Virus record (IMG/VR): IMGVR_UViG_3300035659_000002
Source of the DNA: a virus
Lineage: Duplodnaviria; Heunggongvirae; Uroviricota; Caudoviricetes
Length of the DNA stretch: 64,000 nucleotides
Reading direction: 5' to 3' (one strand)
The translations under genes and the position numbers were made by a program. Below are positions 8,168 through 32,980 of the stretch, piece by piece. How positions within the stretch are numbered: position 1 is the stretch's first letter; each line of letters begins with the position of its first letter. The notes beneath the pieces were generated by a model. That model made no database searches and was not told the DNA's origin. It was given only the letters and a program-made list of their open reading frames with translations.

Positions 8168-8174
8168 GAGTGAT

Positions 8175-10183: not shown

Positions 10184-10690
10184 TCAGGATTCCAATCGTT
10201 GAACGTCATAACCCTTGCGATTGGCAATGCTCACGAGTTCTTGATAAATTGACGGTGTGACCTCGCCCCTGGCAAGAATCCACAAATATCTTTTGCTACT
10301 ACTACCAACGATAGCATACTGATAATTCTGGTCAACGAACTCGATAATATAATCAGCCTTGGGTTGTAACCAAAAAAATTGCACGAGCAACGTGTTTTTT
10401 TTGTCAGAGGGAAATGCTTTACCCATTTGAATTTTCCGCGTGCCATCGGATCGCGTACCTGCATTCTTTACCTCGATATAACCGTCCATCATCGTGTATT
10501 CTGCTGTGACCTTGGATAATCCACGTTGAAACCATGCAGGAAACGCGGCCACTTGATGCCATACTTTTTCACGTTTGTTTAATCCGGTGCCAATATAGTT
10601 ATCGAGATTGATAGATTGCACTTTAACAAGTGCAGAATTAGATTTGTTTGGTCGTGCTTTACCAACCGTCCAAATATTAATCCCTGGCAT
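10184..10690 (-). CDS. Lipocalin-family protein (bacterial Blc-like)
   Basis: C-terminal YQYAIVGSSSKRYLWILARGEVTPSIYQELVSIANRKGYDV resembles the Blc/lipocalin_2 signature (DYxYAlVGxPdRxYLWILSRtP...GfD). Confidence 0.5.
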   Translation of the reverse strand: MPGINIWTVGKARPNKSNSALVKVQSINLDNYIGTGLNKREKVWHQVAAFPAWFQRGLSKVTAEYTMMDGYIEVKNAGTRSDGTRKIQMGKAFPSDKKNTLLVQFFWLQPKADYIIEFVDQNYQYAIVGSSSKRYLWILARGEVTPSIYQELVSIANRKGYDVQRLES

Positions 10691-10807
10691 GATCGTTCAC
10701 GGTATTTGTCCAAGCATCCCGCTAATTTGGGCCTGGATATATTGGTATAGGAAATATCCACCAATGCACGCTGCAAAGAACATGATCAAGAAAAACACCA
10801 GGATGCC

Positions 10808-10975
10808 CGTGTTCAGTTTAACCAATGATTCCATTGATCGGTTTTTCTTTTTTGTTGGCATGATGTTTCACGCAATCACAATAAATAATTTCAAGCATGT
10901 TGCCATAAGGATCAGTTTTCATGTATTTGATACCACTATCGCCGCACTTGTTACACATTATCAATTCACTATTGA
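10808..10975 (-). CDS. small zinc-ribbon protein (56 aa)
   Basis: Manual translation MCNKCGDSGIKYMKTDPYGNMLEIIYCDCVKHHANKK.... Below the ORF-track cut-off. TATA-like TTTTAAAT sits ~27 nt upstream of the ATG. Confidence 0.25.
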
Positions 10976-10991
10976 ATCATTTAAAACCTTA

Positions 10992-12308
10992 TTAGTCAGG
11001 ACGGGTAAATAAAAGCCAATTTGGGCCTATATAGGTCAATGCACAAAGCCCCGTGGCTGATATGGTTAAAACATTTGCGTCCGCGCTAGCCGTGCTAGGA
11101 TCATTCATTCCCATTGACACGGTAATTACTTGAGGAACATCGGTTACATATACATCATAAGCGGTTAATCCGTTAAACATGAAAATTGCCATTGCCGTTG
11201 GAAAAGATGTAACTGAAAATGAAACGGTTGATAGAACACATGTGAATCCCGGCATTGCATTGGACCAATATATTAATACATCGTTTTCATTAGGAGGGTT
11301 TGGTGAAACGGGAAAATTCACAACCACGTTGACACCATCTGATCCTATCATGAAATCCTCGCCAATGGCAGCCACGGAATAAGAATACTCTCCCGAACTT
11401 TGAATCGTGTCGGTATAAGAAATCACATTACCTAACGATGCAAGTAATACCGCTCCCTCGGAATTGCTTGCACGATATACCTCGTAAGATGTCGCTCCCG
11501 GTGTTGCCGTCCATTGAAGATAGAAAATTCCATTCGTTGATGTTACAGGAGAAACCGTTAATTGTGGCTGCTTCGGTATCACGTTCACGGTGACGACATT
11601 GGATATCGGGCTGTCGCCACCGAGGTTGTAAATTGCCACGGCATAATAATACGTGCCTGGGATAACCATGTCCCATGAATTGTATATGTTAGGTTGATCA
11701 ATATTATAAATCAATTGTGCTTCCGATGCTTTCGAGAAAAACATGGTCGAGCGGTAGACCCGCGTTTGTAATGAAGGATCTGCCGTCCAGGATAGTAGAA
11801 TGATGGAATCTGTTTGCGAGTACGGGAGTTCATTTAGAAACGGAGCAGCTGGAGGATATATCGTTACTATGCCTCCTATATCAATACTACCGGGGATGGT
11901 AACGGTAACAGAAACCAAGTTTGAGAATGGGCTTTCTCCTATCGTGTTACTCACGGTCACAGCATAATAATACAAGCCATTTTTCGTGATCGTGTCCTTG
12001 TATTGATTTGCTATCACGTTATCTAAATATCCAATTAATTCAGCTTGAGATTTATCGGTGAACTCGACGTTTGATCGATAAACACTTGCAATCGTTGTGG
12101 GGGCTGCTTGCCATGTTAAAAAGATTATTCCTGTTTCTGACGTGAACGGTAGATTATCAAGGGTCGGCGCATTAGGCAATCGATCTTGAATGATATTATC
12201 CGGTGGAGTTATCACTTCAGCTTTTGGCCAAAGCACGACGGTTAAACTCGCCCCTGCAATCAATCCGATAATCACGAGAACATATATTAATCCTTTTTTC
12301 ATGATCAT
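10992..12308 (-). CDS. Membrane-anchored FN3-repeat protein (paralog A)
   Basis: N-terminal TM helix. Repeated FN3 signatures (LTWQAAP...VYRS, YYYAVTVSNTIGESPFSN, FYLQWTATPGATSYEVYRA). Conserved C-terminus TISATGLCALTYIGPNW. Confidence 0.6.
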   Translation of the reverse strand: MIMKKGLIYVLVIIGLIAGASLTVVLWPKAEVITPPDNIIQDRLPNAPTLDNLPFTSETGIIFLTWQAAPTTIASVYRSNVEFTDKSQAELIGYLDNVIANQYKDTITKNGLYYYAVTVSNTIGESPFSNLVSVTVTIPGSIDIGGIVTIYPPAAPFLNELPYSQTDSIILLSWTADPSLQTRVYRSTMFFSKASEAQLIYNIDQPNIYNSWDMVIPGTYYYAVAIYNLGGDSPISNVVTVNVIPKQPQLTVSPVTSTNGIFYLQWTATPGATSYEVYRASNSEGAVLLASLGNVISYTDTIQSSGEYSYSVAAIGEDFMIGSDGVNVVVNFPVSPNPPNENDVLIYWSNAMPGFTCVLSTVSFSVTSFPTAMAIFMFNGLTAYDVYVTDVPQVITVSMGMNDPSTASADANVLTISATGLCALTYIGPNWLLFTRPD

Positions 12309-12416
12309 GATCTTGATTAAACAATTGAATATTAAATGAATGAACCGCTATACCAATATAAAAATCTTTTCTCCCAATTATACAGATTAAATGATAAATA
12401 AAAAAAGAATTGTTGA

Positions 12417-13538
12417 TTAGATGCTAATTTTGAGAACTTCAGCCGTCATTAGGTCTTTGAAATTAGGTGAAACGCCTTGAACGGTCATATACCATGCATT
12501 CTTAACACTTGATTTAAACAACCAACAAATACCGTCGTTCAAGTTAATCCCTCCAGCCATGTGCCATCCGTTGGTCGCCACGAATACACAACCCGTTCCA
12601 TCGGCAAGATATAATGATGTCGTTATACCGAGCTTGATTCTTAAATCATCATCGGATAGCTTTACCCTAAACGCGGAAGGGCTTGTATATTGGGTCGTTA
12701 TCGTGTAATCAGGTTGGACAGCTAATGTACCATCATAAATCAATGCGGGATACCACATTGATGCATCAATGGATTGAACTCGATCCGTTGGTGTAAGAAT
12801 GAATGCGGCCAAATTCACGACGACAGATGCAACATTAGACATGGCACTTGCCCCCGCATCGTCTAGTGCAACCACGGCATAATAAAATTCTCCTGAAATG
12901 AGGAATTGAGTAGTTATGTATAACCCTTGGCCTACCGTCAGCGTCATTAAAAGAGATGCACTAACAACGTCCGTGAAAAATACATCAGAACGATAAATCT
13001 TGTAGCTCGTTGCTTCGGGAGATTCCGTCCATGCAATCTTGACCGTTCCATCCGTCGATGTTTGAGGGGTTATCGTCACGAATGGTGGTGTCACGGTTGC
13101 CATGCCTACCGGGGGCTTGCTCACGGTCACGGAGACCACGTTCGATAAGTCGCTATCTCCTATCGCATTGCTCACGACCACGCCGTAATAATACATGCCA
13201 TCATCGGCAACCGTATCCGTGTAGGTAAATGCTTGCACGTTCGGATCATTCAAGGTTGCGATCAATGTCGCTTGCGACGCGGCCGAGAACTCGGCACTAG
13301 CACGAAAGACCTTTGTTGATAAAGATGGTTCAGCTTGCCAATTCAATTCGATGACACCGGATGTAGAAGTCATCAGAATAGTGTTTAATGTCGGAGGGTT
13401 TGGTACTCGGTCTTGAACGATGTTATCCCGTTGCGTTGTTGGCTTCGGGAGAAACGCTAGGGTTAACCCGATAGCAGCTCCCACCGCGATCAAGATCAAG
13501 ATGAACGCAATTCCTTTTCTACCTAATTTGAGATTCAT
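12417..13538 (-). CDS. Membrane-anchored FN3-repeat protein (paralog B)
   Basis: TM anchor followed by ELNWQAEPSLSTKVFRAS, YYYGVVVSNAIGDSDLSN, VKIAWTESPEATSYKIYRSD. Confidence 0.6.
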   Translation of the reverse strand: MNLKLGRKGIAFILILIAVGAAIGLTLAFLPKPTTQRDNIVQDRVPNPPTLNTILMTSTSGVIELNWQAEPSLSTKVFRASAEFSAASQATLIATLNDPNVQAFTYTDTVADDGMYYYGVVVSNAIGDSDLSNVVSVTVSKPPVGMATVTPPFVTITPQTSTDGTVKIAWTESPEATSYKIYRSDVFFTDVVSASLLMTLTVGQGLYITTQFLISGEFYYAVVALDDAGASAMSNVASVVVNLAAFILTPTDRVQSIDASMWYPALIYDGTLAVQPDYTITTQYTSPSAFRVKLSDDDLRIKLGITTSLYLADGTGCVFVATNGWHMAGGINLNDGICWLFKSSVKNAWYMTVQGVSPNFKDLMTAEVLKISI

Positions 13539-13641
13539 GATAACATGCCTTTTTGATTCATTTGAATAATGTGTAAAGAACCCGTCTTGCCGATATAAAT
13601 GGTTTTCCCTGGGTTATAGGAAAATAAAAGAAAAAAAGAAT

Positions 13642-14706
13642 TTAACCACCAGGACGAACATACAGATACCAATTCGGGCCGATGAATGTCAAAGCACAAA
13701 GCCCATTGGCAGAAATTGTATAAACACCGGATTGGGTACATGCCTTGTAATTAATTAATTCCACGCCTGTTTCCATCACTCCTTTAACATCATAATCAGT
13801 TATTTGATATATCTTTAACTCGCCCAATATTCCGAGCATCGACGGGGAGCTAAATGATGACAAGGAAAACGAAATAGCTGATTGACTAAATGCTATATAG
13901 CTTTGGATTTTGAGTTGCCAATATGCTATGACATCGGAAACAGGAACATTAATCACCACGTTGTTGTTCCAAGTATTTGAGATGGCACTTTGCGTACCTT
14001 CACTATTAATGGCAACCACGATATAATAATAAACCCCCGGAAAATTAATCTGGTCGGTATATCTAAACAAAGGAGCTGGAATGCCTGGAGAAAAATCATC
14101 TCCCTCTGAAACTGCGCTACTCAATATTGATGTGAGGAATGCGGCATCAGCAAAAGTATGAATATAATTGTCCGAACGGTACACGTCATAACGAACCGCT
14201 TGTGGTGATTTGGTCCAAGCGATATGCACGATTCCATCCGTCGAAGTCGCAGGGGTTACTAGAACAGCAACCGGAGCTATTGCCACATACGGGAATGTCA
14301 CGGTTACACTTACCACATTTGAAAGGCCGGTAGTATCAGCATAGGTTCTCACGCCAATGGCATAGAAATATATACCATCAACCGAAACTATATCCGTGTA
14401 TGTATAATGCCCCGGTTCAACAAATGCTGCAATTATCGCTGCTCCTGATTGAGTCGTGAACTCGTGATTTGAACGGTAGATCCATGTACCTGGGACTTCC
14501 TCGCTTTGCCATGTTAGGGTAATAATACCTGTTTCCGATGACGGGGATAAATTGTCCAAGGTAACAATATAGTTTTGTTCGATATGATCTGGTGGATTTA
14601 TCGTTTCTGTTTTTGGAAGTAATGCCATCGTGATACCGATAGCTGCCACTATAGCAATAACCACGAGAATGAATGCTTTTCCTTTTCTTGATATTTGGAT
14701 GGTCAT
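13642..14706 (-). CDS. Membrane-anchored FN3-repeat protein (paralog C)
   Basis: Real start MTIQISRKGKAFILVV at 14706 by alignment with paralog B. IYFYAIGVRTYADTTGLSN, YYYIVVAINSEGTQSAISN; C-terminus TISANGLCALTFIGPNW. Confidence 0.55.
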   Translation of the reverse strand: MTIQISRKGKAFILVVIAIVAAIGITMALLPKTETINPPDHIEQNYIVTLDNLSPSSETGIITLTWQSEEVPGTWIYRSNHEFTTQSGAAIIAAFVEPGHYTYTDIVSVDGIYFYAIGVRTYADTTGLSNVVSVTVTFPYVAIAPVAVLVTPATSTDGIVHIAWTKSPQAVRYDVYRSDNYIHTFADAAFLTSILSSAVSEGDDFSPGIPAPLFRYTDQINFPGVYYYIVVAINSEGTQSAISNTWNNNVVINVPVSDVIAYWQLKIQSYIAFSQSAISFSLSSFSSPSMLGILGELKIYQITDYDVKGVMETGVELINYKACTQSGVYTISANGLCALTFIGPNWYLYVRPGG

Positions 14707-14836
14707 GATAATATACCTTTTCGATTCACTATAATAATGTGTGAATACCCCGTCTTGCCCATATAAATGGTTTTCTCCAAAAACCACGTAATCTTCTTAT
14801 ATGCCTTGAAAATATGTTATGGCGAGGTGAATCAAT

Positions 14837-15277
14837 TTGTATGTCTATCGATCATCTAGCCATAATGGTGACGGATGCACGAGCTTGATTGTTGTTATTG
14901 CTATCATCGCCGGTATCGTTGGTTGGATTGGTTATCAATCACTATCGCATCCTCCAATCACCACGGAGTACACGGGCATCGTGAATGAAGTACAATCAAC
15001 CTCTACATTTGGAATACATTCATGGTACGTGAAAATAGGAGATACTAGCATCTATTATCAATCCTATTATGAAATTAAAACTTTCAAGTTTTCCTTGACC
15101 CTGGGCAATGGCACGATATATAATTGCCAAAAGATTTATGTGGCAAGAACTAGTGCTATTCCATTGGATAGAACCTATGTCACGGAAAATATCTTTAATG
15201 GTTGGAACATTACCGTTGGTGGATCATGGGATCGACCTAACAACATGTTCCTGATCAATACCTTGGTCAAAAACTAA
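14837..15277 (+). CDS. small membrane-anchored protein
   Basis: 146 aa with an N-terminal hydrophobic helix. Confidence 0.4.
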   Translation: MYVYRSSSHNGDGCTSLIVVIAIIAGIVGWIGYQSLSHPPITTEYTGIVNEVQSTSTFGIHSWYVKIGDTSIYYQSYYEIKTFKFSLTLGNGTIYNCQKIYVARTSAIPLDRTYVTENIFNGWNITVGGSWDRPNNMFLINTLVKN

Positions 15278-15320
15278 TTTATTTTTTTATTATTTTTTTA
15301 TAAAAATGTTTGATGGATAA

Positions 15321-16439
15321 TTACCACCAACATAAGGTTGTCATGCCCCAGGTTAATTGCATGTTGATGATGCTATTCCCTGACACGTACCAATATCCAT
15401 AGTATGTCGTGAGGGTTGCCAGGAGGTCATGGATAATAAATGCCATGCATGTTGAATTAATCTTGTATCGTTGCATGTTATAGTTATTGTTGTTCTTCAC
15501 GCGAAAATCAGTTATTCCAATGGCATTCCTAAATACAATTTTGATTTCTATATTCGTTTCCTCTTCCCGAGAATAATCAAAGGTGGGAACATACCCACAT
15601 CCTGGTTCTGATTTATTTGCCCCCACGATAATGGTGATATTCTCCCCGGTGCCTTTGGCAGGATCGACCGATGTTAAATTCATGAACAGGATGCTCATTC
15701 CCGAGCTTGATGGCAAGGCGAAGGTCACGAGGTCATTCGATGTATCCGGTCGGATCTGCGCCCAGCGCGTGTAGTAAATCTTGTTGCCTTCTTCATTCGT
15801 TCCATTGTATTCGATGAAATAAAACTCATAGCCATAATCATCAAAATCAAAATATTTCAAATGATGTATTCCTTCAGAAGTTTCGAGAAGGACAAATCCA
15901 CTGAAGTCACACGGGTCATCGTTCACGCCATAAAGCTTGTAACCGAAATAATACTCGTCTAATTCATCACCTGATAATCCATCAGAAATCGTGACCGAAA
16001 ATTCATGTGGCTGATATGGCATTGGTGGCCCTGGATATGGAATATAACACATTGCTACCAAGATCACAGGAATTAATACTCCGATAGCAAGGGTGGCTAA
16101 AATCTTTTCTTTGCGTTGTTGTTTTTTGCGATAACGTAGGTTTTCGGTTTCATGTCGTGTTAATCGTGAACGTGGATGTGAACGTGGATGTGGATATGAT
16201 ATTATCAAGTCTTTATCAAGATCGTGAATGACATCTGAATCGGCCATCTCCTCCAATTCAGGTAGCTTCTTAAGATCATCTTCATCTATTTCTATTTCAC
16301 GACGGGAAGGCCTAGTATCTGGAGGACCAGGATATTCCTTTTCAACAAGCTTGGCATCGTGTTCCTTGCTTCCAGCTTCCCATTTCTTGAATTGCTCGTC
16401 TAGCTCGTCAATCTTTTTATCAAGATCCTCATCGGGCAT
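15321..16439 (-). CDS. single-pass membrane protein with acidic N-terminus
   Basis: 372 aa: D/E-rich N-terminal region, one TM, C-terminal ectodomain. The ectodomain is paralogous to 17243..18214. Confidence 0.45.
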   Translation of the reverse strand: MPDEDLDKKIDELDEQFKKWEAGSKEHDAKLVEKEYPGPPDTRPSRREIEIDEDDLKKLPELEEMADSDVIHDLDKDLIISYPHPRSHPRSRLTRHETENLRYRKKQQRKEKILATLAIGVLIPVILVAMCYIPYPGPPMPYQPHEFSVTISDGLSGDELDEYYFGYKLYGVNDDPCDFSGFVLLETSEGIHHLKYFDFDDYGYEFYFIEYNGTNEEGNKIYYTRWAQIRPDTSNDLVTFALPSSSGMSILFMNLTSVDPAKGTGENITIIVGANKSEPGCGYVPTFDYSREEETNIEIKIVFRNAIGITDFRVKNNNNYNMQRYKINSTCMAFIIHDLLATLTTYYGYWYVSGNSIINMQLTWGMTTLCWW

Positions 16440-16582
16440 GAATTCATCACTCTCGAAACATCATCGTGCCATTTCATTTAAACAATTTTGTTAAAGGGTT
16501 TTAACAATATTATTTAAATCCTTGCTATTGCATCACCAATAACGGTACTCGATAAATATAACTAACCGAGGTTGAAAATAAA
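16440..16582. promoter_or_regulatory. divergent promoter region carrying two copies of the conserved motif
   Basis: atttaaacaattttgttaaa at 16476-16495 (minus orientation) and ttttaacaatattatttaaat at 16499-16519 (plus orientation). Confidence 0.45.
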
Positions 16583-16894
16583 ATGAACCAATACGATCTT
16601 TTGCTTTTGCTAACCATAATCATGACCCTGATCGTTTTTTCCACAGCGTTAGTTCCTGTTGTCATTGAATGGAATCGTTCCCGAGAAGAATACAAGGTTT
16701 GGAAAATCATGAAGCAAGAACTAGGCACGTCACCTACTCCCGAGCAATTTCATGCTTTTATTGAGAAGCATCCCAAGTTTCATTCTGCCATGTACCGGAT
16801 TTCGGTCAAGATGGAAATGGCATCATTGGCCAAGGATTTGATGCAATCACTACGAGACTTGTTAAAGAAAATGCAAGAGGACATGGATGAGTAA
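16583..16894 (+). CDS. hypothetical protein
   Basis: 103 aa. GAGGT lies 11 nt upstream of the ATG. Confidence 0.45.
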   Translation: MNQYDLLLLLTIIMTLIVFSTALVPVVIEWNRSREEYKVWKIMKQELGTSPTPEQFHAFIEKHPKFHSAMYRISVKMEMASLAKDLMQSLRDLLKKMQEDMDE

Positions 16895-16973
16895 TCATGC
16901 CTGAAAGCGTCGAACGTATATTTTTTCCCGTATGCCCCAGATCGATTTATCACGAGCATTTGATACATGATGG

Positions 16974-17240
16974 ATGTGCATGATAGCGTTACAGAACCGA
17001 TACAGTTCTTTGAAAACAAGGAGAATGATTCAAATGCAGAAAAAAAATGATCGGGAAGATTATTGGTTGTTTTTAATAATGTTAATTGTTTTTCATGCCT
17101 TGATAATCGGTACTATAATAGAATATGGTTTGAATGTTGCATTAACCATGTTTTTAATATTGTTGCTTCCACTTTTATCTGTAATGATTCCCATTGTATC
17201 TAACATGTATAAACAATTGAAGAACAAAGAGAATGATTAG
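16974..17240 (+). CDS. small membrane protein
   Basis: 88 aa with two hydrophobic helices. Confidence 0.3.
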   Translation: MCMIALQNRYSSLKTRRMIQMQKKNDREDYWLFLIMLIVFHALIIGTIIEYGLNVALTMFLILLLPLLSVMIPIVSNMYKQLKNKEND

Positions 17241-17242
17241 AA

Positions 17243-18214
17243 ATGCCCGCACGACCACCAACCATTAGGCCCGCATCACGTCCGGCCTTCCGGCCCCCCG
17301 TGAGCCATTCGACCCCGCCGAGCATCAGGCCCTCGACACCCCCACCATCTTTCAGGCCGCCGGTTCATCATGACAATCCACCGTCCCGGCCTCCACCCCC
17401 GCCGACGGTAATCCACCGGCCATCAATCCCGCCGATTGTTACCACTGCGATCATCATCAATTCGATGACACATCAAGATCCACCCGTGCATCAAAGCGAA
17501 CCCGTGCATCAAGATGAACCCTTGCATGAATCGGACGACTTCAAGGAAACAGCATACGAGCAACCATTACCACCTCCGTCCAAGTGTTGCCGGTATTGTG
17601 GCGAGGCGATCACGTCAGGAGACATTTGCCCGAAATGTAAATTAACACACGATGAACAGAAGTACCCGAATGATGATGTTATAGATCGGGATTATGACGA
17701 TGACCATGATCAAGAAAAGTCAAAATACATGCATCATCTTGCATCCCCAAATTATTTTCACGAATCTAAATCACGTTACCTGTGTCATCGAGGAATGTCC
17801 AATGAAAAGAAAATGATGTATGCCATTGCCATAGCGGTCGGACTTCTCATGCCGATAGCATTCGTTTACATGATGCCATACTTGTTATACATGCCTTCAA
17901 CCGTGGCCTACAAGCATGGACCATTCCAGGTGAACTCCCTTCATTTCGTGGACGGGAACGATGGCACGGAATATGCGGGGGTTGAATATTTTGAACTTTA
18001 TGTCTCCAATAATTCCGAACGATATGATGAATATAATTTCATCACCAACGGAACGGGTTCAGTTTCCCAGGTTCTTGCCGCTCTTGCAAGCATTCCTGAA
18101 TCGGAGTATTATTTACAAGTCGTTCTATATTCCGATGGCTATGCTCCTTACGGCGATAGCTGGGACATCATTACCACCGGCAATAATTGGATCTATCTTT
18201 ATCCCATTCCATGA
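17243..18214 (+). CDS. Pro-rich single-pass membrane protein with zinc ribbon
   Basis: RPPTIRPASRPAFRPP... low-complexity Pro tract, CCRYCGE...CPKCK, TM segment. The ectodomain is similar to the 15321..16439 product. Confidence 0.5.
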   Translation: MPARPPTIRPASRPAFRPPVSHSTPPSIRPSTPPPSFRPPVHHDNPPSRPPPPPTVIHRPSIPPIVTTAIIINSMTHQDPPVHQSEPVHQDEPLHESDDFKETAYEQPLPPPSKCCRYCGEAITSGDICPKCKLTHDEQKYPNDDVIDRDYDDDHDQEKSKYMHHLASPNYFHESKSRYLCHRGMSNEKKMMYAIAIAVGLLMPIAFVYMMPYLLYMPSTVAYKHGPFQVNSLHFVDGNDGTEYAGVEYFELYVSNNSERYDEYNFITNGTGSVSQVLAALASIPESEYYLQVVLYSDGYAPYGDSWDIITTGNNWIYLYPIP

Positions 18215-18232
18215 AAACCGAAGTGAATGAAC

Positions 18233-18406
18233 ATGGCACGAAAGAAAGAGAAACGAGTATATCTCACTCCCATGGGAAAGATCGTCGCAATGGGCGAAAT
18301 ATCATTACGAATGCGGGAGACCGGCAAGACCGCTCAACAAGTAATGGACGACAATGAACGAGAAATACAAAAGAAAATGGAGAACGATGATCATGAAAGG
18401 AAATGA
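18233..18406 (+). CDS. small hypothetical protein (57 aa)
   Basis: Manual ORF MARKKEKRVYLTPMGKIVAMGEISLRMRETGK...; below the track cut-off. Confidence 0.2.
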   Translation: MARKKEKRVYLTPMGKIVAMGEISLRMRETGKTAQQVMDDNEREIQKKMENDDHERK

Positions 18407-18548
18407 CGTGATACTCTGGATTGGAACGATCTGCTTGTGTATCAATATTATCTTTATATTATTGGATGGCATGAATGTTATCAATACCATCGGAGTAATA
18501 TCGGGCATCCTTTGTGTTGTCTCTGCATTATCAGAACAGATCGATTGA
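18354..18548 (+). CDS. small membrane protein
   Basis: 64 aa, hydrophobic. Confidence 0.3.
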   Translation: MNEKYKRKWRTMIMKGNDVILWIGTICLCINIIFILLDGMNVINTIGVISGILCVVSALSEQID

Positions 18549-18627
18549 TTGTCTTGTTTCTTTTTTTTTTCAACAAGCCATGTTATCACCTTACCTTGTT
18601 TTAGGCAAACGGGCTTTTTTTTATCGG

Positions 18628-18647
18628 TTTAACAAAATGATTTAAAT
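18628..18647 (+). promoter_or_regulatory. conserved promoter-like motif TTTAACAAAATGATTTAAAT
   Basis: The TATA-like box lies ~25 nt upstream of ATG 18668. Confidence 0.45.
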
Positions 18648-18667
18648 TTTTGGTAAAGGTATAAAGT

Positions 18668-19003
18668 ATGATTATTATGCCTGTAGATACATCAAACCTT
18701 TCAAAAACTGAAAAACAATACGCTGCTCCTACCCTGGTTATTATTCACGATAAGAATGTTCCTATCGAAGTAATGCGTGGCCTTCTATTCTTCTTTGAAG
18801 GAAAAATTAATTGTAATAAAGACAAAGATGAGATACGTCGGGAGCTACGTAGGTATTTGAAATATGAAGGCAATACCGAGAAATTGGTTGATGCCATCAA
18901 GAAAACCATATTGGGAGAACCTGAATCCAATCAGAACATTAGTTCGGAATCAATGTTGGATTCAAATCCTGTTATTGGAAAAATAATTGATTCCCATGAT
19001 TAG
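18668..19003 (+). CDS. hypothetical protein
   Basis: 111-aa ORF immediately after the promoter motif. Confidence 0.45.
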   Translation: MIIMPVDTSNLSKTEKQYAAPTLVIIHDKNVPIEVMRGLLFFFEGKINCNKDKDEIRRELRRYLKYEGNTEKLVDAIKKTILGEPESNQNISSESMLDSNPVIGKIIDSHD

Positions 19004-20872
19004 TATTTTTTAATTCCATTTTTTCTTTTGATTATCTTATCAAGTTACCTTCTTTTGACCAATTGGGCTTTTTTTGTTGAAGATAACCGGTTTGTTACAA
19101 CCTGATTACTTCGTGCATCCAAACCGGTATATTATAAATTTTGACTATAGCGGTCCCCGCACCTCTCGAGTTGATCCTTCTGCCGATTTTTAGCCCACCT
19201 TTTCTTGGTTAATGATTACATTAAATACATTTGTAAAGGCATGAGGTTTTTTATGATCTTGTTTTTTATCTATCAAATGCTTAAAATATCCTTTGATTTT
19301 AAATCCCTAACTTCTCAAACCTATCATTTTATCATGTATCCATGATACTTTTCATATATAAATGAAACCAAATTGATATATTTTCGAGTAATGGTGATAA
19401 ACCTTTGAATCAAAAATATATACCAAAAAGGCAAACCGGGCTTTATATTTGATTGAAATTTTGACTTTCCCTCCTTGGTTCTCGAGCGTTCTACACCAAT
19501 TATAATAGGTCAATCATTGATTATATCCACGTTTAGATTAGTTAAATGTCATCTAGCATAGGGTTTAATCAATGGGATACAAACAAAGCATTTTTATACC
19601 ATGTATTATCAAGTTATCATTTTTGATGAAAACGGGCTTTTTTTGACCAATTATGAAAAAGTAATCAAGTTACCTATCTCCGAGAAAACGGGCTTTTTTT
19701 GGCTTTTTTTCAATTTTATCAATCCACGCTCCTGGCACGTGTATCCTGAATGCTCGACATGGCCTATTTTGCCTTTTTTAGTATTATCAAGTTACCTCTA
19801 TCATAAAATGCCCTTTTTTTTGAAAATAGGCGTTTTTAGGCATTTTGACGTGTTTTTGCCCATTTTGACCATGTTTTAGGTGTCGAAAACGTGCCTTTTT
19901 GACCTATTTTGACCTATTGTTTGACCCATTTTCGAGCATGAAAATGGCGTGTTTTTGGCTTTTTTTGCATCATTTTTGACCGGCAGCTGCGACGATTTTC
20001 GAGGCCTGAACGACTAAAAATTCACCCGTTTTTGCATCATTCGACCACGATCCAAGCCCTGATTCATCGGTAAAAACACCTTTTTTTGACCTTTTTTTGC
20101 CCATGAAAATACCATTTTCGACCATTTTTCGTGCATTTTTGGTCTCGGGATGTTTTTCGATGGTTGGTGACCGGATTGACTATCCGGGCTTTTTTTTCGG
20201 AATGATGGCTTTTTTTTCGGGGATCCGGGGCAACCGTGGCTCGAATTGGCCATTTTCCCGATCCTAGCTACTCGGGATCTTGCAAGGTCGATTATCGGGA
20301 TTCAATCAATTCCCACCTTTTTTTCCAACGTATATCATCAAGTTATCCCCTCTTGATAAAGGACGTATTTTTTAGAAAAGGATGGAATAATCGTGGAGAA
20401 CAGGGTGTATTCTGGAGGGTATCGGATGGAATCGGATGGAGATGAAGAGCAAGTTTTTTTGGAAACGTGCGGGGAAGGAGATAGAGTATAACTTGATGAC
20501 ATGCGGCAATCCCACTTTTTTTTTGCATGATCGAAAAGTAACTATCCCGACAAAATCAACCAAGGCTTCTAACGACGAACCGCAACACGCCCACGGAATG
20601 CCGAGATAGGCGTTCCCGTTGAAAATAACGGCTCCGTCTTGGACCCTGAATGGACAATGGAAATAGATGTCATGGGCGAGGTCCAGGGAATAACTTCAAA
20701 TATCGATCATGGTACTTTACTATTGCGAATCATCTCGACTCACATCAAACTCGCGCATCCTACAAGGTTCGTTGTTTTCAGTCATTTTCGTTTTTTCTCC
20801 ATGGTGTTTCACCGGGATAGGGAGAGGGGTCACCCTCCCCTTCCCAAATTTTTTTTAGATGCGGGCGAGTAA

Positions 20873-20919
20873 CCCCCGGCGGGGGGAAATCGAGTCCCCC
20901 CGCCTTTTCATTCCTTTTT
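20873..20919 (+). terminator. intrinsic terminator-like hairpin
   Basis: ggcggggggaaatcgagtccccccgcc stem-loop followed by ttttcattcctttttt. Confidence 0.55.
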
Positions 20920-20940
20920 TAACAAAATGATTTAAATATA
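20917..20940 (+). promoter_or_regulatory. conserved promoter-like motif TTTTAACAAAATGATTTAAATATAC
   Basis: About 45 nt upstream of ATG 20983. Confidence 0.45.
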
Positions 20941-20982
20941 CACGGTCGAATCCTTGCTATAGATACTCGAAGTGTATCTAAC

Positions 20983-21315
20983 ATGGCACGCTTAACAAAA
21001 TTGGAATCCGAAGCCAAAAAAGCCAAGATCGCGGCGATGCTCGCCACAAACACGTCGTGGGCCATGATTGTCAAGGAAACGGGGTGCAGCTTCCAGACCA
21101 TTGCAGCGATCAGGAATGATAGTGGTAATCATAGTAAGAAAAAAACCGAACTTGATTCAAGGCAAGCCGAGAATGCAATGTTGAAAGATAAACTTCGTTT
21201 TCTCAACGCATTTTTCAAGGATAACCTAGATTACTTGTTCCAGAGCAAGAAAATTCAAGATTTCGTGATAAATCATCAAGAATTTGACGAGGTAGATACG
21301 TTATGCCAAGCTTGA
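20983..21315 (+). CDS. small HTH-like protein, paralog 1 of 3
   Basis: 110 aa. N-terminal TSWAMIVKETGCSFQTIAAI helix-turn-helix-like. C-terminal FLNAFFKDNLDYLF...VDTLCQA is shared with the next gene. Confidence 0.45.
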   Translation: MARLTKLESEAKKAKIAAMLATNTSWAMIVKETGCSFQTIAAIRNDSGNHSKKKTELDSRQAENAMLKDKLRFLNAFFKDNLDYLFQSKKIQDFVINHQEFDEVDTLCQA

Positions 21316-21560
21316 GAGAAATGATGCTTCAAAAACAGCAAGAAGCTACCGAAGCTGCCAAGAAAAGTGATCTTATCACCAAGCAAGCTAGTCCCGATAT
21401 AGGATCTGCTAGTAATCCGAAGGTATTGGCCAATCTAAAATTTCTTAACGATTTTTTCAAAGCCAACGCGGAATATCTTTTCTCAAATGAACAGATCGCC
21501 GCATTTATCGAAAAAAACACGGAAAAATTCAACGAGGTAGAAACACTATGCCAAGTTTAG
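21303..21560 (+). CDS. small protein, paralog 2 of 3
   Basis: Begins MPSLREM... and ends FLNDFFKANAEYLF...VETLCQV. Start overlaps the previous stop (ttATGccaagcttGA). Confidence 0.45.
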   Translation: MPSLREMMLQKQQEATEAAKKSDLITKQASPDIGSASNPKVLANLKFLNDFFKANAEYLFSNEQIAAFIEKNTEKFNEVETLCQV

Positions 21561-21817
21561 CTGAAATGCTCGCTGACAAGAAGCGACAAGAAGCTGCCGA
21601 AGCTGCAAAGCAAGCCTTAAAGAAAGAAGCCAAAGAGATTCTTCCATCTGATCCAAAAAACAAATTCTGTCCTGTTGATTGTGATTCGCAAAATGACAAG
21701 CATAATTGTCGTGATTGTGCAAGAAATACCAATTCACGGCCCGATTTATATAAGAAGATGTCATCATTCAAGGAAATGATGGAAGCCAAGGGATGGAAGC
21801 CAAGGGAAAACTCTTGA
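21548..21817 (+). CDS. small Cys-containing protein, paralog 3 of 3
   Basis: Begins MPSLAEM... with the same overlapping junction ctATGccaagtttAG. C-terminus CPVDCDSQNDKHNCRDCARN. Confidence 0.45.
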   Translation: MPSLAEMLADKKRQEAAEAAKQALKKEAKEILPSDPKNKFCPVDCDSQNDKHNCRDCARNTNSRPDLYKKMSSFKEMMEAKGWKPRENS

Positions 21818-21891
21818 ACAAGAAGTCCAAGCTGGCATCTAACATGTTCCCTGTTTTAAATACCGAATTGGCATATATTATAAAGTTAAAG

Positions 21892-21993
21892 TTAAATATA
21901 CTAAAAACCATAACATAAATGTACATAAAAATTAGGTGAAAATTAAATATACTAAAAACCATAACATAAATGTACATAAAAATTAGGTGAAAA
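21892..21993. repeat. perfect ~51-bp tandem duplication in front of ATG 21995
   Basis: ttaaatatactaaaaaccataacataaatgtacataaaaattaggtgaaaa occurs twice. Each copy carries the TTAAATATAC box and an AGGTGA. Confidence 0.7.
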
Positions 21994-21994
21994 A

Positions 21995-22681
21995 ATGTTC
22001 ATCGGAACATACAAGATTAACCAAGCCAAAATCTATCTCCCATCAATATGGCTCAAAAGTAATAAAGACGTGAAGGAGGTCGATGTTTTCATTGATGATA
22101 ATATCATCACTATCAAACCCGCCTCCGTGGATAAAACATTGACGAAAATAAAAGATGCACAAGAAATAAAACAAATCGAAAATTTTGAAATCAATTCAAA
22201 AGATGAATTAATGGATCTGGCCTTGTTTTCTTTCATGAATGTTTTCATGAATGATGTCGTGGGAATACCAACCTATGCTCAAATCAGAACATTTTTCACG
22301 TCATTACATATACAAGCCGAGAAGGTAGCAATCACGGTATTACGGGGGTTACAAAGCAACACGATTTGCATTCACGAGCAACCACAAGACGAATACGGGA
22401 TATTTTTGGAATTTTTGTTGAAATGGCTGCCGCCAGGTCTCGTTAATTTTCAACTTCCTCATACATTTTCGATCCAAGAAGCATTCTCGCAATTTTCCGG
22501 GCTTGGATTTAAGGATATTCACGGATTCGTGGCATTTCTCGAAAGAATTTCCACGATGTATCCTGACGTGCTAGGTTTCAGTTCGGAGAAACTCGGACAT
22601 GTAGCAAATTTAGTAACGATCAGGAATGTGTTTTCTGAAAAGCTTTTATTTGCTCGTGATGATGCATGGAAGGTGAACTAG
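21995..22681 (+). CDS. hypothetical protein
   Basis: 228 aa; AGGTGA lies 6 nt upstream. Confidence 0.5.
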   Translation: MFIGTYKINQAKIYLPSIWLKSNKDVKEVDVFIDDNIITIKPASVDKTLTKIKDAQEIKQIENFEINSKDELMDLALFSFMNVFMNDVVGIPTYAQIRTFFTSLHIQAEKVAITVLRGLQSNTICIHEQPQDEYGIFLEFLLKWLPPGLVNFQLPHTFSIQEAFSQFSGLGFKDIHGFVAFLERISTMYPDVLGFSSEKLGHVANLVTIRNVFSEKLLFARDDAWKVN

Positions 22682-24811
22682 ATGGGTATATTCCAAGAAT
22701 ATGAACGGTTCATCAGGGATTTCACATATAATGAGGACTTGGCAAAAACCGCAATATCAATTTTTAAAGGCGAGGGAAATGCACAAATCATCACGCCAAA
22801 TCTAGCACAGAAAAACACCCGTCACGTCCAAGACGTGATAATCGCCTCACGTGTCATGGAAAACGGGTTGAAAAGTATTCATGATGGTATAAAAAAACTG
22901 CTTTCCGACAAACAGCAATTTTCTGGAAGTTTATTCTATTTTTCTCAATATGGTGGAAGTAAAACCCAGTTTTTAAATTATATTTTTGATGAGATACAAA
23001 CGAAAATTTCTGATTGTATCATCATTATGTTTAATGATATAAATGAACTGAATCCATTAATATTATTCGACAAAATTAAACAATCCACGTATTATACCAT
23101 ACCAAAGTTACCACGGCTTGGCAATGATGAGGAAGCATTTTCCAATCTCATTAGTAAATTGGAAGGTGTTTCATCTGATATATTCGTGGAACTTCGTCAT
23201 TCATCAAATTTACAAAAAGCAAAATCAATTTCAGGTCAAATTAGAACTACATTAAAAAACAACCCCGACATCGTGAAAAAAATAAATGAATTGGACGAAG
23301 TATTGTATTCAACGATTTTAATTGATTCTGAATCCATTATGAAAAAAGTCCAAGATTTCATGCGAGAAATTACCGAGATGGGTATTGTTTTTTTATTTCT
23401 TTATGATGAGGTGGATCTTTGGATCGATGAAACATCAGAAGGAATAACATTTAGCGACAAATTCAACGGGTTAAACAAGGTGATGAAATTGCTTTTTCAA
23501 AGTTCGCAAGAAAGCGTGAAGGTGTTTCATGTGTTTGCTTGTACGGAACGTGTAAATTCGATTTTTGAAAACAATAGGTATAATGGTTTTTCTAAAATGT
23601 CCCCCGCTGCGAGCAGGCTGATTCAATTATATGATAGAAGCGATAAAATTACCGAATCAGGGTGTTATGATGGAAAAATGGATATCGCACTTGCCAAGAT
23701 TGCTTCTTTCTACTCCATTGCGAATAATAAATTCATGTTTGATGAAGAATTTCTCAATCAATTATTGGAATCAATAAGTGAAAAATTTGGAAATTCTTCT
23801 CGTCGTGTTGTAAATTCTCAAATCATAAAATTACTAAAAACATACCACGTTTATCATGGCCCAATGAAACGAGGTCTCAAAGAATGGAAGGATAATGCAA
23901 GAAAATATGGCAACCTGCTACAAGAACACATTACGCCAATTCTTAATCAGTTAAACATAAAATTTGAGCGAAATGACGTTAAAATTAATCCTGAAAATCC
24001 ATCTAGCGATAAAATTGATGGTTGTTTCATTAATTATGATATGGATGGAAAAGAAATCAAGACATATAGCGAAATCAAACTAACAGGAAATTTTAAGAAA
24101 GAAAAAGCATATCAAGCATTCCAATGGTCCCAGTTACGAAAAGAACCTATCATAATGATTATTTTTTGCCCAGATAGCAAAGAAGATATCAAGAAAGAAA
24201 TTAATACGTATGCCATACAAAATGGATTTTTGCCGGAGGATACAGCGAGAATAAAAATATTACACATAAGAAATCCCTTTGCATTCGTATCAATTATTGG
24301 CGTTGAAAATGTAATGTCTGATCATCAGAATCTTATGGATTTTTATAACACGATGGCTTTGTGGCTTGATATGTTCGGTAACTTCACCGATAATTATCAT
24401 GATTTAAAGAAAGAAATTGGTCTTTCCATCAAATTGCCATTGATATCGCCACCAGTAGCTGATCATAAGAACCCGCTTCAAATTAGTAATGAAAAAGCAG
24501 ATGATGTTCCTCCGGTCCAATTTACAAATGAACAATCCATGTGTATAGGTTTGCTCATCAAGTTATTCCAAGAAAAGAAGTTTAACCCGTCAGGTAAACT
24601 GAATAAATCAATCATTGAAAAGGTTAATAACGATTTCGGCCTTGGTATTGGAGATTTGGAACAAATTTATGAAGTAATGCAGAAATATAATATTGTCATT
24701 AAAATCAATCCTAAACAAGTGACATTTCAACCAGAAATAATATCCTGTGATGGAACGAATAATTTTCTCGACGTTTGTAGAAAGTATTTTACATCTATTA
24801 AAGGGATTTGA
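22682..24811 (+). CDS. large hypothetical protein, possible P-loop NTPase
   Basis: 709 aa. GGAAGGTGA SD. Deviant Walker-A-like SQYGGSKT and Walker-B-like IVFLFLYDEVD. Confidence 0.3.
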   Translation: MGIFQEYERFIRDFTYNEDLAKTAISIFKGEGNAQIITPNLAQKNTRHVQDVIIASRVMENGLKSIHDGIKKLLSDKQQFSGSLFYFSQYGGSKTQFLNYIFDEIQTKISDCIIIMFNDINELNPLILFDKIKQSTYYTIPKLPRLGNDEEAFSNLISKLEGVSSDIFVELRHSSNLQKAKSISGQIRTTLKNNPDIVKKINELDEVLYSTILIDSESIMKKVQDFMREITEMGIVFLFLYDEVDLWIDETSEGITFSDKFNGLNKVMKLLFQSSQESVKVFHVFACTERVNSIFENNRYNGFSKMSPAASRLIQLYDRSDKITESGCYDGKMDIALAKIASFYSIANNKFMFDEEFLNQLLESISEKFGNSSRRVVNSQIIKLLKTYHVYHGPMKRGLKEWKDNARKYGNLLQEHITPILNQLNIKFERNDVKINPENPSSDKIDGCFINYDMDGKEIKTYSEIKLTGNFKKEKAYQAFQWSQLRKEPIIMIIFCPDSKEDIKKEINTYAIQNGFLPEDTARIKILHIRNPFAFVSIIGVENVMSDHQNLMDFYNTMALWLDMFGNFTDNYHDLKKEIGLSIKLPLISPPVADHKNPLQISNEKADDVPPVQFTNEQSMCIGLLIKLFQEKKFNPSGKLNKSIIEKVNNDFGLGIGDLEQIYEVMQKYNIVIKINPKQVTFQPEIISCDGTNNFLDVCRKYFTSIKGI

Positions 24812-24821
24812 AGAACGAACG

Positions 24822-24845
24822 TTTAACAAAATAGTTTAAATATAC
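24822..24845 (+). promoter_or_regulatory. conserved promoter-like motif TTTAACAAAATAGTTTAAATATAC
   Basis: About 50 nt upstream of ATG 24895. Confidence 0.45.
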
Positions 24846-24894
24846 TCGGTCGGACGATTGCTCGGTACTACAAGATTTTGCAAGGTAATATCTC

Positions 24895-25317
24895 ATGGGA
24901 AAACCAGCAGCAAAACCGACGGGCGACAAGCCCGAGGACAAGAAGGATGCCCTTGCTGACGACGACGAGGATGAAATGGACGAAGCGGAAGATGACCTCA
25001 CCGATGAGGATGACGAAGATGAGGACGAAGATGACGAAGGAGTTAGCGAACTCTTGACCCAAGTAACGACCATGGTTGATAGCATGTTGGGGTCAATCGT
25101 GCGAAATGTTCAAGCCCTCAACCTGGATAACTTGATCTGCTCGAAGATTTCGACATTGATCGCTGACCTCGATTTCGAGAAGCCCTTACCCGATAACAAG
25201 AAAACTGCTATTGATACCCTCGTGAAACTTCGCACGACCTTGTTCGGCCAGGGCATCCCCATGTTCCCGTCCAACATCATGAACTCGGCCATGAAGGGCC
25301 TGGATGACAAGGAATAA
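24895..25317 (+). CDS. highly acidic protein (poly-D/E tract)
   Basis: DDDEDEMDEAEDDLTDEDDEDEDEDDEG followed by a helical C-terminal part. Confidence 0.45.
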   Translation: MGKPAAKPTGDKPEDKKDALADDDEDEMDEAEDDLTDEDDEDEDEDDEGVSELLTQVTTMVDSMLGSIVRNVQALNLDNLICSKISTLIADLDFEKPLPDNKKTAIDTLVKLRTTLFGQGIPMFPSNIMNSAMKGLDDKE

Positions 25318-25556
25318 AAACTCTTTTTTTTCTTTTTAATTTACAAGCAAAGGCCATTAATCATGGAAACTGATAAAGAAATCACGAATTGTTTGAAAGA
25401 TAAAATCAATTATCTCGAAACACTTATCACGATATTCAACACGCGTGTTCCACGATTTTTCGTCAAGAGAGTTTATAAAAAAATGAAAGAAACAAGAATA
25501 AAGAACCCAAAAATATAGTAAACAAAAAGCCATCACCCCATTGAAGATGACATGAA

Positions 25557-26060
25557 ATGGTACAATCTATTTGGTTGAAATTGGACAAGCCACGAAAACA
25601 AGACGTGATCTATTCGATACTTGATGCGAAATACAAGCTCGAACCATATAATCAACAGGATGGTTCGTCCAGGGATATACACAAGCGATATAGCATCGAA
25701 AAAGGATTCACGTTTGTTGACAAGAGCATCATCGAATCAGCATTGCGAAAAATAATCACCGATTATGATAAAAGTCTTGACTGCAAGTGCGAATTTTGCA
25801 CGATGCTCAAGACCCGTGGTAATTTGGTCGTGTACATGTTCGGTATTACCTTCAGTCCATCTATAGATGATCTCATGGCTAACAAACCGGATGCGTTAAT
25901 AACGACCATCGGAAGAAATATCTGGATGGCCAATTGGATGTGTTTCATTCAAGATGACCGGCTCAAGCTACTCAATCATTTCTTGGAAGATATCAAGCAA
26001 GAACTAGCAAAATCAGAAATTGAATCGACGCTTGACATGAATGATTGTGATTTAGAATGA
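25557..26060 (+). CDS. hypothetical protein
   Basis: 167-aa ORF; its stop overlaps the next start (ATGA). Confidence 0.4.
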   Translation: MVQSIWLKLDKPRKQDVIYSILDAKYKLEPYNQQDGSSRDIHKRYSIEKGFTFVDKSIIESALRKIITDYDKSLDCKCEFCTMLKTRGNLVVYMFGITFSPSIDDLMANKPDALITTIGRNIWMANWMCFIQDDRLKLLNHFLEDIKQELAKSEIESTLDMNDCDLE

Positions 26061-26644
26061 AAAAAATACCAAGCATTTTCGCACGGGATTGGGAAAAGAA
26101 TCCTGACGATATTTTACCGATTGCCGATCCGGGTTGCGATTGGGTGTTTCGCAACGAAGGAATCCCCACGAGAAAATGGGATGGCACGGCCCACATGGTC
26201 AAGGATGGCAAACTCTACAAGCGATATGATGCAAAAAAGGGCAAGCCCGCTCCACAAGGGGGCATTCCATGCCAAGATCCGGACCCGATAACAGGACATT
26301 GGCCACATTGGATACCCGTTGATTTCAATGCGCCAGATGCAAAATGGGGAAAAGAGGCTTGGGATGAATCACTCAAAATTGATGGAAGTGTTTTATCAGA
26401 TGGTACATACGAACTTTGCGGGCCAAAAATAAACGCCAATCCCGAGCATCTTGCAATGCATCAATTGATTCGCCATGGCGAGGAAAGAGTTAATTTCCGG
26501 TTCAACGGTTCAACCGTGGAAGAATGGTTCAACGAAGTTAAAACATTTCTATCGACCGTGAACATCGAAGGTATCGTTTGGCATCATCCTGACGGTCGAA
26601 TGGCCAAGATCAAGAAAAAAGATTTTCGGTTGCCACGTCAATGA
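26057..26644 (+). CDS. minimal covalent nucleotidyltransferase, ATP-dependent RNA/DNA ligase-like
   Basis: Motif I RKWDGTAHMV (KxDG), then EGIVWHHPDG and AKIKKKDF (motif IV/V-like EGhV...K-x-K). Confidence 0.4.
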   Translation: MKKIPSIFARDWEKNPDDILPIADPGCDWVFRNEGIPTRKWDGTAHMVKDGKLYKRYDAKKGKPAPQGGIPCQDPDPITGHWPHWIPVDFNAPDAKWGKEAWDESLKIDGSVLSDGTYELCGPKINANPEHLAMHQLIRHGEERVNFRFNGSTVEEWFNEVKTFLSTVNIEGIVWHHPDGRMAKIKKKDFRLPRQ

Positions 26645-32541: not shown

Positions 32542-32554
32542 AGATGAAAAATGA

Positions 32555-32642: not shown

Positions 32643-32647
32643 AATAA

Positions 32648-32796: not shown

Positions 32797-32805
32797 GTTT
32801 CTTGA

Positions 32806-32884: not shown

Positions 32885-32892
32885 TTTTGATA

Positions 32893-32971: not shown

Positions 32972-32980
32972 GTTATTTCA

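Follow-up and report, generated by a model that had tools for sequence, protein, structure and literature searches.

A long non-coding zone with strand-polar oligo-T tracts and a two-part repeat in a virus-like element, probably of an Asgard archaeon

We analyzed a long non-coding zone in 64,000 nucleotides of DNA deposited as IMG/VR virus record IMGVR_UViG_3300035659_000002 (Caudoviricetes), a window that is part of a 137-kb contig; all coordinates are positions in this 64-kb window, and the plus strand is the strand as given. An initial annotation, made from the sequence alone, had singled out 19004-20980 as a gene-free region with iteron-like repeats and had suggested a replication origin or a regulatory hub. 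Our data confirmed that this is the only long non-coding stretch in the window, other apparent gaps being filled by small same-strand ATG open reading frames (ORFs). No credible ORF was found in 19004-20980, where the longest candidates are low-complexity frames running through T-runs, and the region contains no tRNA and no Rfam family, even at permissive thresholds (the top score, for SNORD100, was 23.7 bits against a gathering threshold of 58, with an E value of 0.064, and the hit spans a T7 run). Furthermore, a tblastn comparison of every window ORF with the region gave no pseudogene signal, and significantly structured RNA in the zone is limited to a pair of GC-rich hairpins at 20800-20910 (z score of -5.2). 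Small ORFs or structured noncoding RNAs, a possibility raised at the outset, do not account for the region. Nor is the zone an assembly artifact, since contigs from independent assemblies and samples agree: a Logan contig that spans the entire region agrees with it at every base over 2.5 kb, and ENA and JGI contigs from other samples also cross it and are identical as far as 20346-20513.

The feature in fact extends over approximately 18560-20980 and encloses one small gene, encoding a protein of 111 amino acids (aa). We draw this wider span because a complete copy of the two-part repeat described below (U0) precedes position 19004, where the left boundary had been set, and because the next copy (U1) repeats the same arrangement; the repeat begins about 420 nt to the left of that boundary. 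The genes on both sides of the zone, the ORFs at 16583-19003 and the block at 20983-26644, are all on the plus strand. This overturns the earlier placement of a minus-strand block directly upstream, with a strand switch at the zone, as the minus-strand block ends at 16439 and the ORFs at 16583-19003 have plus-strand promoters of their own. The true strand switch is found at about 16440-16580, with back-to-back promoters at 16494 (minus) and 16501 (plus), and the non-coding zone lies inside a co-oriented plus-strand block, between the promoters at 18629 and 20919.

Runs of T dominate one strand of this zone. Within 19004-20980, the plus strand carries 22 runs of six or more T's and the minus strand none, against an expectation of 8.9 ± 2.4 and a maximum of 16 in 1,000 dinucleotide-preserving shuffles. 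Altogether, 56 plus-strand tracts have at least four T's and 14 have seven to nine, the latter being preceded by C in 12 and followed by G in 9 cases. The abundance of T tracts noticed earlier is also evident from GGCTTTTTTT, which has 10 copies in the window, all on the plus strand and 7 of them in the region (0.58 in shuffles). The roughly six ATTTTGACC repeats described for 19850-19950 fared less well: only 2 copies are exact, the region contains about 10 copies with one mismatch, and across the window the word shows no enrichment. Repeats were nevertheless confirmed by repeat finding. The T-rich part, 19600-20330, contains perfect 10- to 20-nt tandem duplications, the T4+ tracts of 19820-20140 are phased at about 11 nt (power of 10.8 versus 8.5 for the 99% null), and the expected tandem of ATCGGATGGA is present in two copies at 20421-20440.

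An alignment of copies revealed a unit consisting of the 13-mer TTATCAAGTTAYC, a spacer, GGGC, and seven or eight T's. In four units (18583, 19037, 19606, and 19662), the spacer is exactly 15 nt long, even though the spacer sequences are unrelated. The five copies of ATCAAGTTAYC reported initially are indeed present as exact plus-strand matches (19039, 19608, 19664, 19786, and 20337), together with an inverted copy with one mismatch at 20487-20497, and 14 sites with at most one mismatch occur in the window, versus 2.9 ± 1.7 in shuffles. That each copy is followed by AACGGGCTTTTTTT holds for three of the five, which have GGGC-T7 at a fixed distance, but not for the fourth (GCCC-T8) or the fifth, which is loose. 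The 13-mers start 454, 569, 56, 122, and 551 nt apart, a spacing unlike that of iterons. In the 64-kb window, the unit occurs at 18583-20373 only; a profile hidden Markov model (HMM) matched these copies alone, all on the plus strand, and had no match in 79 kb of related Asgard sequence.

The first two copies share their surroundings: both U0 and U1 begin about 35 nt beyond the stop codon of a plus-strand ORF (stops at 18548 and 19003), after a first T-run. U0 comes after a T10 run, and 5 nt separate its end from the promoter motif of the 111-aa gene; U1 starts 33 nt past the stop codon of that gene and is preceded by two T6 runs. A promoter-like AACAAAGCATTTTTATA is found at 19581-19598, 8 nt ahead of U2. 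Farther to the right, a 23-nt inverted repeat (20329-20351 and 20483-20505) surrounds a purine-rich 131-nt segment of roughly 40% GC that contains the two copies of ATCGGATGGA. The combination of a conserved box and a fixed spacing suggests that a sequence-specific factor reads the unit. The predicted RNA secondary structure of the units was no better than that of shuffles (z scores of -1.1 to +0.9), and targets complementary to the 15-nt spacers were not above chance in the window. We also rejected the 13-mer as part of a promoter, as no constant distance between a TATA-like word and the unit was found. CRISPR arrays consist of identical 25- to 40-nt repeats with unique spacers of similar length; neither such an array nor solitary repeats of one fit what was observed, the finders having returned the split 13-mer plus GGGC-T7 with its 15-nt spacer and irregular unit spacing.

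Coordinates of the features of the zone and of the promoter copies in the window
Feature	Position	Strand	Description
T10 run	18561-18570	+	13 nt past the stop codon of the small ORF that closes the upstream plus-strand operon; first terminator-like tract
U0	18583-18622	+	TTATCACCTTACC, 15 nt, GGGC, T8; nhmmer E value of 1.3e-8
Promoter of 111-aa gene	18628-18647	+	TTTAACAAAATGATTTAAAT; position weight matrix (PWM) score of 32.2
111-aa gene	18668-19003	+	Function unassigned; between U0 and U1; 70%-identical homolog in a related contig
U1	19037-19076	+	TTATCAAGTTACC, 15 nt, GGGC, T7
AT-rich core	19181-19470		24% GC; AT skew near 0; TATA-like words; short inverted repeats
U2	19606-19645	+	TTATCAAGTTATC, 15 nt, GGGC, T7
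U3	19662-19710	+	TAATCAAGTTACC, 15 nt, GGGC, T7, then tandem duplicate GGCTTTTTTT
U4	19784-19821	+	TTATCAAGTTACC, 13-nt spacer, GCCC, T8
Degenerate array	19822-20140	+	(GAAAAY)-GC-T5-7-G(A)CC words; local 10- to 11-nt tandem duplications
Small hairpin	20171-20217	+	CCGGATTGACTATCCGG then GGCTTTTTTTT, with a 20-nt duplicate
U5 (loose)	20335-20373	+	TCATCAAGTTATC, 17 nt, G, TATTTTTT; left arm of inverted pair
U6 (inverted 13-mer)	20487-20499	-	TCATCAAGTTATA; no T-run after it; right arm of inverted pair
Strain-variable right part	20514-20958		16 to 19 differences from two variants
Two GC-rich hairpins, each with a T-run	20824-20920	+	T8 at 20849-20856; TTTTCATTCCTTTTTT after 20904
Downstream operon promoter	20918-20940	+	BRE/TATA-like; near-identical copy at 24822
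Promoter copies, plus strand	16501, 18629, 20919, 24823	+	
Promoter copies, minus strand	49985, 35932, 35552, 32539, 16494, 10179	-	

To the right of the inverted pair, the zone continues with a 330-nt repeat-free part and ends in two hairpin-plus-T terminators, 20824-20856 with its T8 and 20878-20920 with its T tail. The GC-rich terminal hairpin of the initial annotation is thus real and has a second one beside it; the hairpin at 20873-20904 has no counterpart of its sort in the non-coding DNA of the window. A layout of the Rho-independent type, i.e., a GC-rich hairpin followed by a T-run, was seen only at 20171-20197, 20824-20856, and 20878-20920 and not in the 13-mer units. The AT-rich core has the second-lowest GC content in the window, with 21796-22081 lower still (23.5%) and several coding stretches close to it. 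The latter segment, which carries direct repeats of ATAAAAATTAGGTGAAAA just upstream of a gene for a 228-aa protein, is also where the Logan assembly breaks (contig ends at about 21921 and 21964).

The surrounding genes are equipped with a distinctive promoter. By taking the 70 nt upstream of every ORF, followed by a motif search and a PWM, we recovered a recurrent motif resembling the transcription factor B recognition element (BRE) and TATA box of archaea, TTTAACAAAAT-NN-TTTAAAT(ATA), also written TTTTTAACAAAAT-NN-TTTAAAT(ATA). Its 10 copies score 27 to 32, all other sites reaching at most 14.7, and each copy is directed at a start codon 20 to 75 nt downstream; a T5-8 run lies just upstream in 6 of the 10. 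By the same PWM, no promoter of this class is located inside the region. Operons in the window end in T5-8 runs 0 to 46 nt past the stop codon, without a hairpin (T7-8 examples are at 25324, 13637, 12406, and 31471). Sites of the sigma-70 type showed no enrichment, and we therefore rejected a bacterial reading with sigma-70 promoters. In Asgard host contigs, the motif is matched at best by weaker versions (AAAAT-NN-TTTAAAT), and searches of IMG/VR and GTDB genomes with the motif gave single chance matches only, in unrelated taxa. A literature search for the promoter word returned nothing useful. The family is far more uniform than the basal promoters of the host, which suggests an element-specific transcription factor.

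With respect to gene content, the window is phage-like: it encodes a helicase, a PrimPol-like domain, an NAD-dependent DNA ligase, an RNA ligase, several methyltransferases, an HNH nuclease, a MazG-like protein, a nucleoside deoxyribosyltransferase, and four tRNAs. Most of its proteins match nothing, and neither the region nor the window has DNA similarity to INPHARED phages or PLSDB plasmids. Two proteins point to Asgard archaea. A 709-aa protein (22682-24811) has homologs of 47% to 53% identity, the named ones coming from metagenome-assembled genomes of Promethearchaeota and Odinarchaeota and from a marine-sediment metagenome (LCGC14); these homologs sit in cellular gene contexts on host chromosomes rather than in viruses. 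A helix-turn-helix (HTH) protein (20983-21315) has a homolog beside an integrase in a Sigynarchaeota contig. Given the archaeal-style promoters, the hairpin-less T-runs, and the Asgard protein homologs, the window probably represents an archaeal virus-like element with an Asgard host. For comparison, large viruses of Asgard archaea are known from metagenomes and enrichments, an example being the 96.6-kbp NMV1 (bioRxiv 10.64898/2026.08.12.739948). With a size of about 100 kb or more and a probable Asgard association, the present element resembles such viruses, a likeness of size and host only. In the papers on these viruses, term searches turned up no replication origin, promoter, or comparable non-coding region.

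Strain variants, recovered by exact look-ups with the upstream gene and with spurious ORFs inside the zone, show that the right edge of the zone differs between strains. Two of them (L343 and L346) lack window positions 20959-24822, and the junction falls in a duplicated promoter; we therefore regard the block from the HTH gene to the 709-aa gene as an accessory cassette. This 3.9-kb cassette holds five genes, for the 110-aa HTH protein and for proteins of 85, 89, 228, and 709 aa, and is bordered by near-identical promoter copies (20918-20958 and 24822-24862). Its gain and loss looks like the outcome of recombination between the duplicated promoters. The same two variants match the window at every position from 14850 or 16535 to 20346-20513, show 16 to 19 differences within 20347-20958, nearly all from 20514 on, and are 98.7% to 99.5% identical farther right. 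Such identity on the left and differences on the right place a recombination boundary at the inverted pair, within the right-hand part of the zone. The variants retain the stem of the hairpin at 20873-20904, with loop and stem length altered. The T-rich part is 100% identical in all four variants (L343, L346, L344, and L345), as are the flanking genes. Two of these, the Logan contigs L344 and L345 from two other samples, both end at 19960/19961 in a GGCTTTTTTT tract; low coverage, or heterogeneity of the homopolymer or repeat, could explain these ends, and we base no conclusion on them.

Beyond these close variants, no homolog of the zone was found in INPHARED, PLSDB, IMG/VR, or JGI metagenomes, and an IMG/VR protein search with three flanking proteins returned no relatives. 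Neither Rfam nor any of the phage, plasmid, viral-contig, and metagenome collections searched contained the unit; its motif had no match in IMG/VR and single chance matches only in JGI metagenomes. In contigs with homologs of the HTH protein (L335 and L337) or of the 111-aa protein (L339), the adjoining intergenic regions are short and unrelated: a 400- to 500-nt region with operator-like ATCGTAGTG repeats around a TATA box lies upstream of the HTH homologs, and a T7 run followed by other genes lies downstream of the 111-aa homolog.

Considering these data, we tentatively propose, at a little less than even confidence, that the zone at 18560-20980 is a strand-polar array of archaeal oligo-U terminators that acts as a transcriptional boundary or control zone. 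We rank this reading first because the units stand after stop codons and before promoters, lack hairpins, and are oriented like the local genes. The polarity of the T-runs as a whole also matches the orientation of the flanking genes, and the tracts have the marks of archaeal terminators, namely, four to seven or more T's on the sense strand, a position just downstream of genes, and no hairpin upstream. Archaeal terminators are U4-7 tracts, with more tracts giving stronger termination; oligo-U terminators, either intrinsic or assisted by aCPSF1/FttA, have been mapped in Methanococcus maripaludis and Thermococcus kodakarensis, and Lokiarchaeal aCPSF1 follows the same U-tract rule (PMC8716108). 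Like these, the zone has T4-8 runs on the sense strand after genes, hairpin-free and stacked, which agrees with the suggestion in the initial annotation that such oligo-T tracts fit archaeal termination and is compatible with its regulatory hub. Unlike usual archaeal terminators, it packs 22 strong tracts into 2 kb that is nearly devoid of intervening genes, and six of its tracts are tied at a set distance to a conserved 13-mer.

What can be said most safely on physical grounds is that, in an archaeal host, 22 sense-strand T6-9 tracts would present a very strong one-way stop to plus-strand transcription. An RNA polymerase moving rightward from the promoter at 16501 or 18629 would meet all of these tracts, which are candidate stop signals for archaeal RNA polymerase aided by aCPSF1/FttA. 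With so strong a stop, the downstream module would be expressed only from 20919, or from 24823 in strains lacking the cassette, and the purpose of the array may be insulation or temporal control. Six of the tracts belong to the private two-part unit, and a putative factor reading the 13-mer could modulate termination or bind DNA. The zone may double as a cis site for replication or recombination.

There are key aspects of the zone that speak against such an array. One or two U-tracts suffice elsewhere in the genome, and 2 kb with 22 tracts is far in excess of what a boundary requires. Moreover, no other operon end in the 64 kb has the 13-mer unit; its absence there and in the 79 kb of related Asgard sequence argues that it is not a general terminator module. 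The identity of the strain variants is uninformative on constraint, because the flanking genes are equally identical, and termination at the T-runs is itself read from the sequence. Concerning the host, the link depends on proteins of the accessory cassette together with the style of promoters and terminators, and other strains lack the cassette. A more specific version of the terminator hypothesis, which we find very doubtful, takes the units as bipartite 3'-end signals in which a factor of the host or of the virus reads UUAUCAAGUUAYC at a constant distance of 15 nt from a GGGC-U7-8 site. In this scenario, GGGC-U7-8 would be the termination or cleavage site, and an array of factor-dependent terminators could form a temporal gate, comparable to the anti-termination control of phage lambda.

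That the zone is instead a replication origin, as the initial annotation proposed, has lost its strand-switch argument but keeps some origin-like traits, and we consider it possible but less likely than the terminator array. In this hypothesis, the 13-mers would be initiator sites and the 24%-GC core at 19181-19470 an unwinding element, whereas the T tracts phased at 11 nt would bend the DNA and the T-runs would exclude transcription or template pyrimidine-rich priming. Iteron and AT-rich origins are known from lambda ori, R6K, P1, and T4 oriE, where iterons are regularly spaced tandem repeats that bind the initiator, and large DNA viruses have long, repeat-rich, transcribed lytic origins (herpesvirus oriLyt and baculovirus hrs). 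Like them, the zone is long, ORF-free (the sole long non-coding stretch), and recombination-prone, with an AT-rich core, phased T4+ tracts at 19820-20140, local slippage duplications, and a repeat family of direct copies plus one inverted copy; it also has a between-strain recombination boundary and the cassette insertion or deletion at its right edge, and it coincides with a shallow local minimum of cumulative GC skew at about 20 to 21 kb. Unlike them, it has irregular repeats that form no iteron array, only the degenerate T-tract words being phased; its T6+ tracts are confined to one strand, and it has neither an adjoining initiator gene nor a strand switch, the actual switch being at about 16.5 kb. 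The GC-skew inflection sought as a check amounts to no independent signal, as in the 64-kb window the skew is explained by gene orientation alone. Archaeal chromosomal origins, in which inverted origin recognition boxes (ORB and mini-ORB) flank an AT-rich DNA unwinding element next to orc1/cdc6, likewise share with the zone dispersed short repeats, a long intergenic region, and one inverted repeat pair; its motif is, however, unrelated to ORB, the pair encloses a purine-rich rather than an AT-rich segment, and no orc1/cdc6 gene was found nearby or anywhere in the window. Furthermore, no Rep, Orc1/Cdc6, or MCM gene adjoins the zone, whose flanking proteins have no Pfam, PHROG, or PADLOC match; the minus-strand block has a PrimPol-like gene (805-2361) and a helicase gene (5843-8299), at distances of 11 to 18 kb, the AT-rich core is not the spot of lowest GC in the window, and related elements have no such region.

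Similar features could be assigned to another kind of cis-acting DNA site, either a partition centromere built on 11-bp phased repeats or a packaging or terminus region (pac/cos) with GC-rich hairpins, a prospect that we judge improbable. The parC site of plasmid R1 contains ten 11-bp direct repeats bound by the small protein ParR. The zone resembles it in having direct repeats phased at 11 nt and a small protein gene beside them, the enclosed 111-aa gene, whose product was modeled by AlphaFold as all-helical with low confidence (predicted local distance difference test score of 48); it differs in that the repeats are degenerate, lie within a much larger T-rich zone, and have no ParA/ParM-type NTPase gene as a partner. 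A packaging site could draw on the uniqueness of the GC-rich hairpin at 20873-20904 and on the two Logan contigs from other samples that both stop at 19960/19961, but three assemblies cross the region uninterrupted, no terminase gene is near, and the contig ends could merely mean low coverage or homopolymer heterogeneity. The conserved boxes around a 15-mer that is constrained in length and variable in sequence, each unit ending in an archaeal terminator, would also suit a cluster of tiny RNA genes, with products of about 25 to 40 nt that share a 5' box or a 3' GGGC-U7 tail and differ in a 15-nt "guide." The scattered TATA-like words and the promoter-like AACAAAGCATTTTTATA before U2 could then drive such genes, but these words stand at varying distances from the units, no promoter of the genome's class is present inside the region, and the lack of secondary structure, of an Rfam match, and of complementary targets for the 15-mers beyond chance level makes this highly unlikely. 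Finally, a largely functionless spacer, in which terminator modules left over from lost small cassettes were stacked and then expanded by replication slippage, has little probability in our view. It would be in keeping with the cassette gain and loss through duplicated regulatory modules next door, with the several perfect 10- to 20-nt tandem duplications, and with intervals (U0-U1, 454 nt; U1-U2, 569 nt; U4-U5, 551 nt) that each resemble one small-gene cassette in length and of which only U0-U1 still has an ORF. Against this, the exact 15-nt spacing and the boxes were kept despite fully diverged spacers, which speaks for selection on the units; pseudogene traces are absent, and the T-run excess goes beyond composition.

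In its overall design, the zone appears to resemble known kinds of elements, a terminator cluster or an origin-like control region, and the two-part unit is what seems to be new. To our knowledge, almost nothing is known about how transcription starts and stops, or how replication starts, in Asgard archaea and their viruses. The window offers clean and testable signals, i.e., a sharp BRE/TATA-like promoter, hairpin-less oligo-T terminators, and a private unit with a fixed spacer, that can be transferred to existing archaeal in vitro and reporter systems, some of which already employ Lokiarchaeal aCPSF1. If the 13-mer modulates termination, the unit would be a new kind of archaeal terminator; an origin here would make the zone the first proposed cis-acting replication element of an Asgard virus.

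Several neighbors of the zone deserve mention in their own right. The genes for the 228-aa and 709-aa proteins (21995-24811) form a two-gene module that is conserved in Asgard host chromosomes at 47% to 53% identity (counterparts at 9298-12118 in L331, 4422-7230 in L332, and 1836-4698 in L334). Some homologs of the 228-aa protein have weak winged-helix matches, and the module itself matched nothing in Pfam, PADLOC, or PDB; it may be a host-derived defense or regulatory module carried by the element. Upstream of the HTH homologs, in L335 (9900-10000) and L337 (280-400), ATCGTAGTG occurs four times, of which once in inverted and three times in direct orientation, around a TTTATATA box, an arrangement resembling that of an autoregulatory operator. 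The corresponding position in the window is occupied by the palindrome AGATACTCGAAGTGTATCT (20961-20979).

Just to the left of the zone, 10184-18214 encodes a block of predicted membrane or surface proteins, among them a lipocalin-like protein, three proteins of 370 to 440 aa that combine Ig/FN3-like features with a transmembrane segment, and a proline-rich, 323-aa zinc-ribbon membrane protein that is called at different lengths in different strains (249 versus 323 aa). The four tRNA genes are clustered on the minus strand at 32553-33059 (Ser-GCT, Leu-TAA, Leu-CAA, and Leu-AAG). Two 61-nt segments lying side by side at 33324-33445 share 85% identity, as seen from a shifted self-match between a strain variant and the window.

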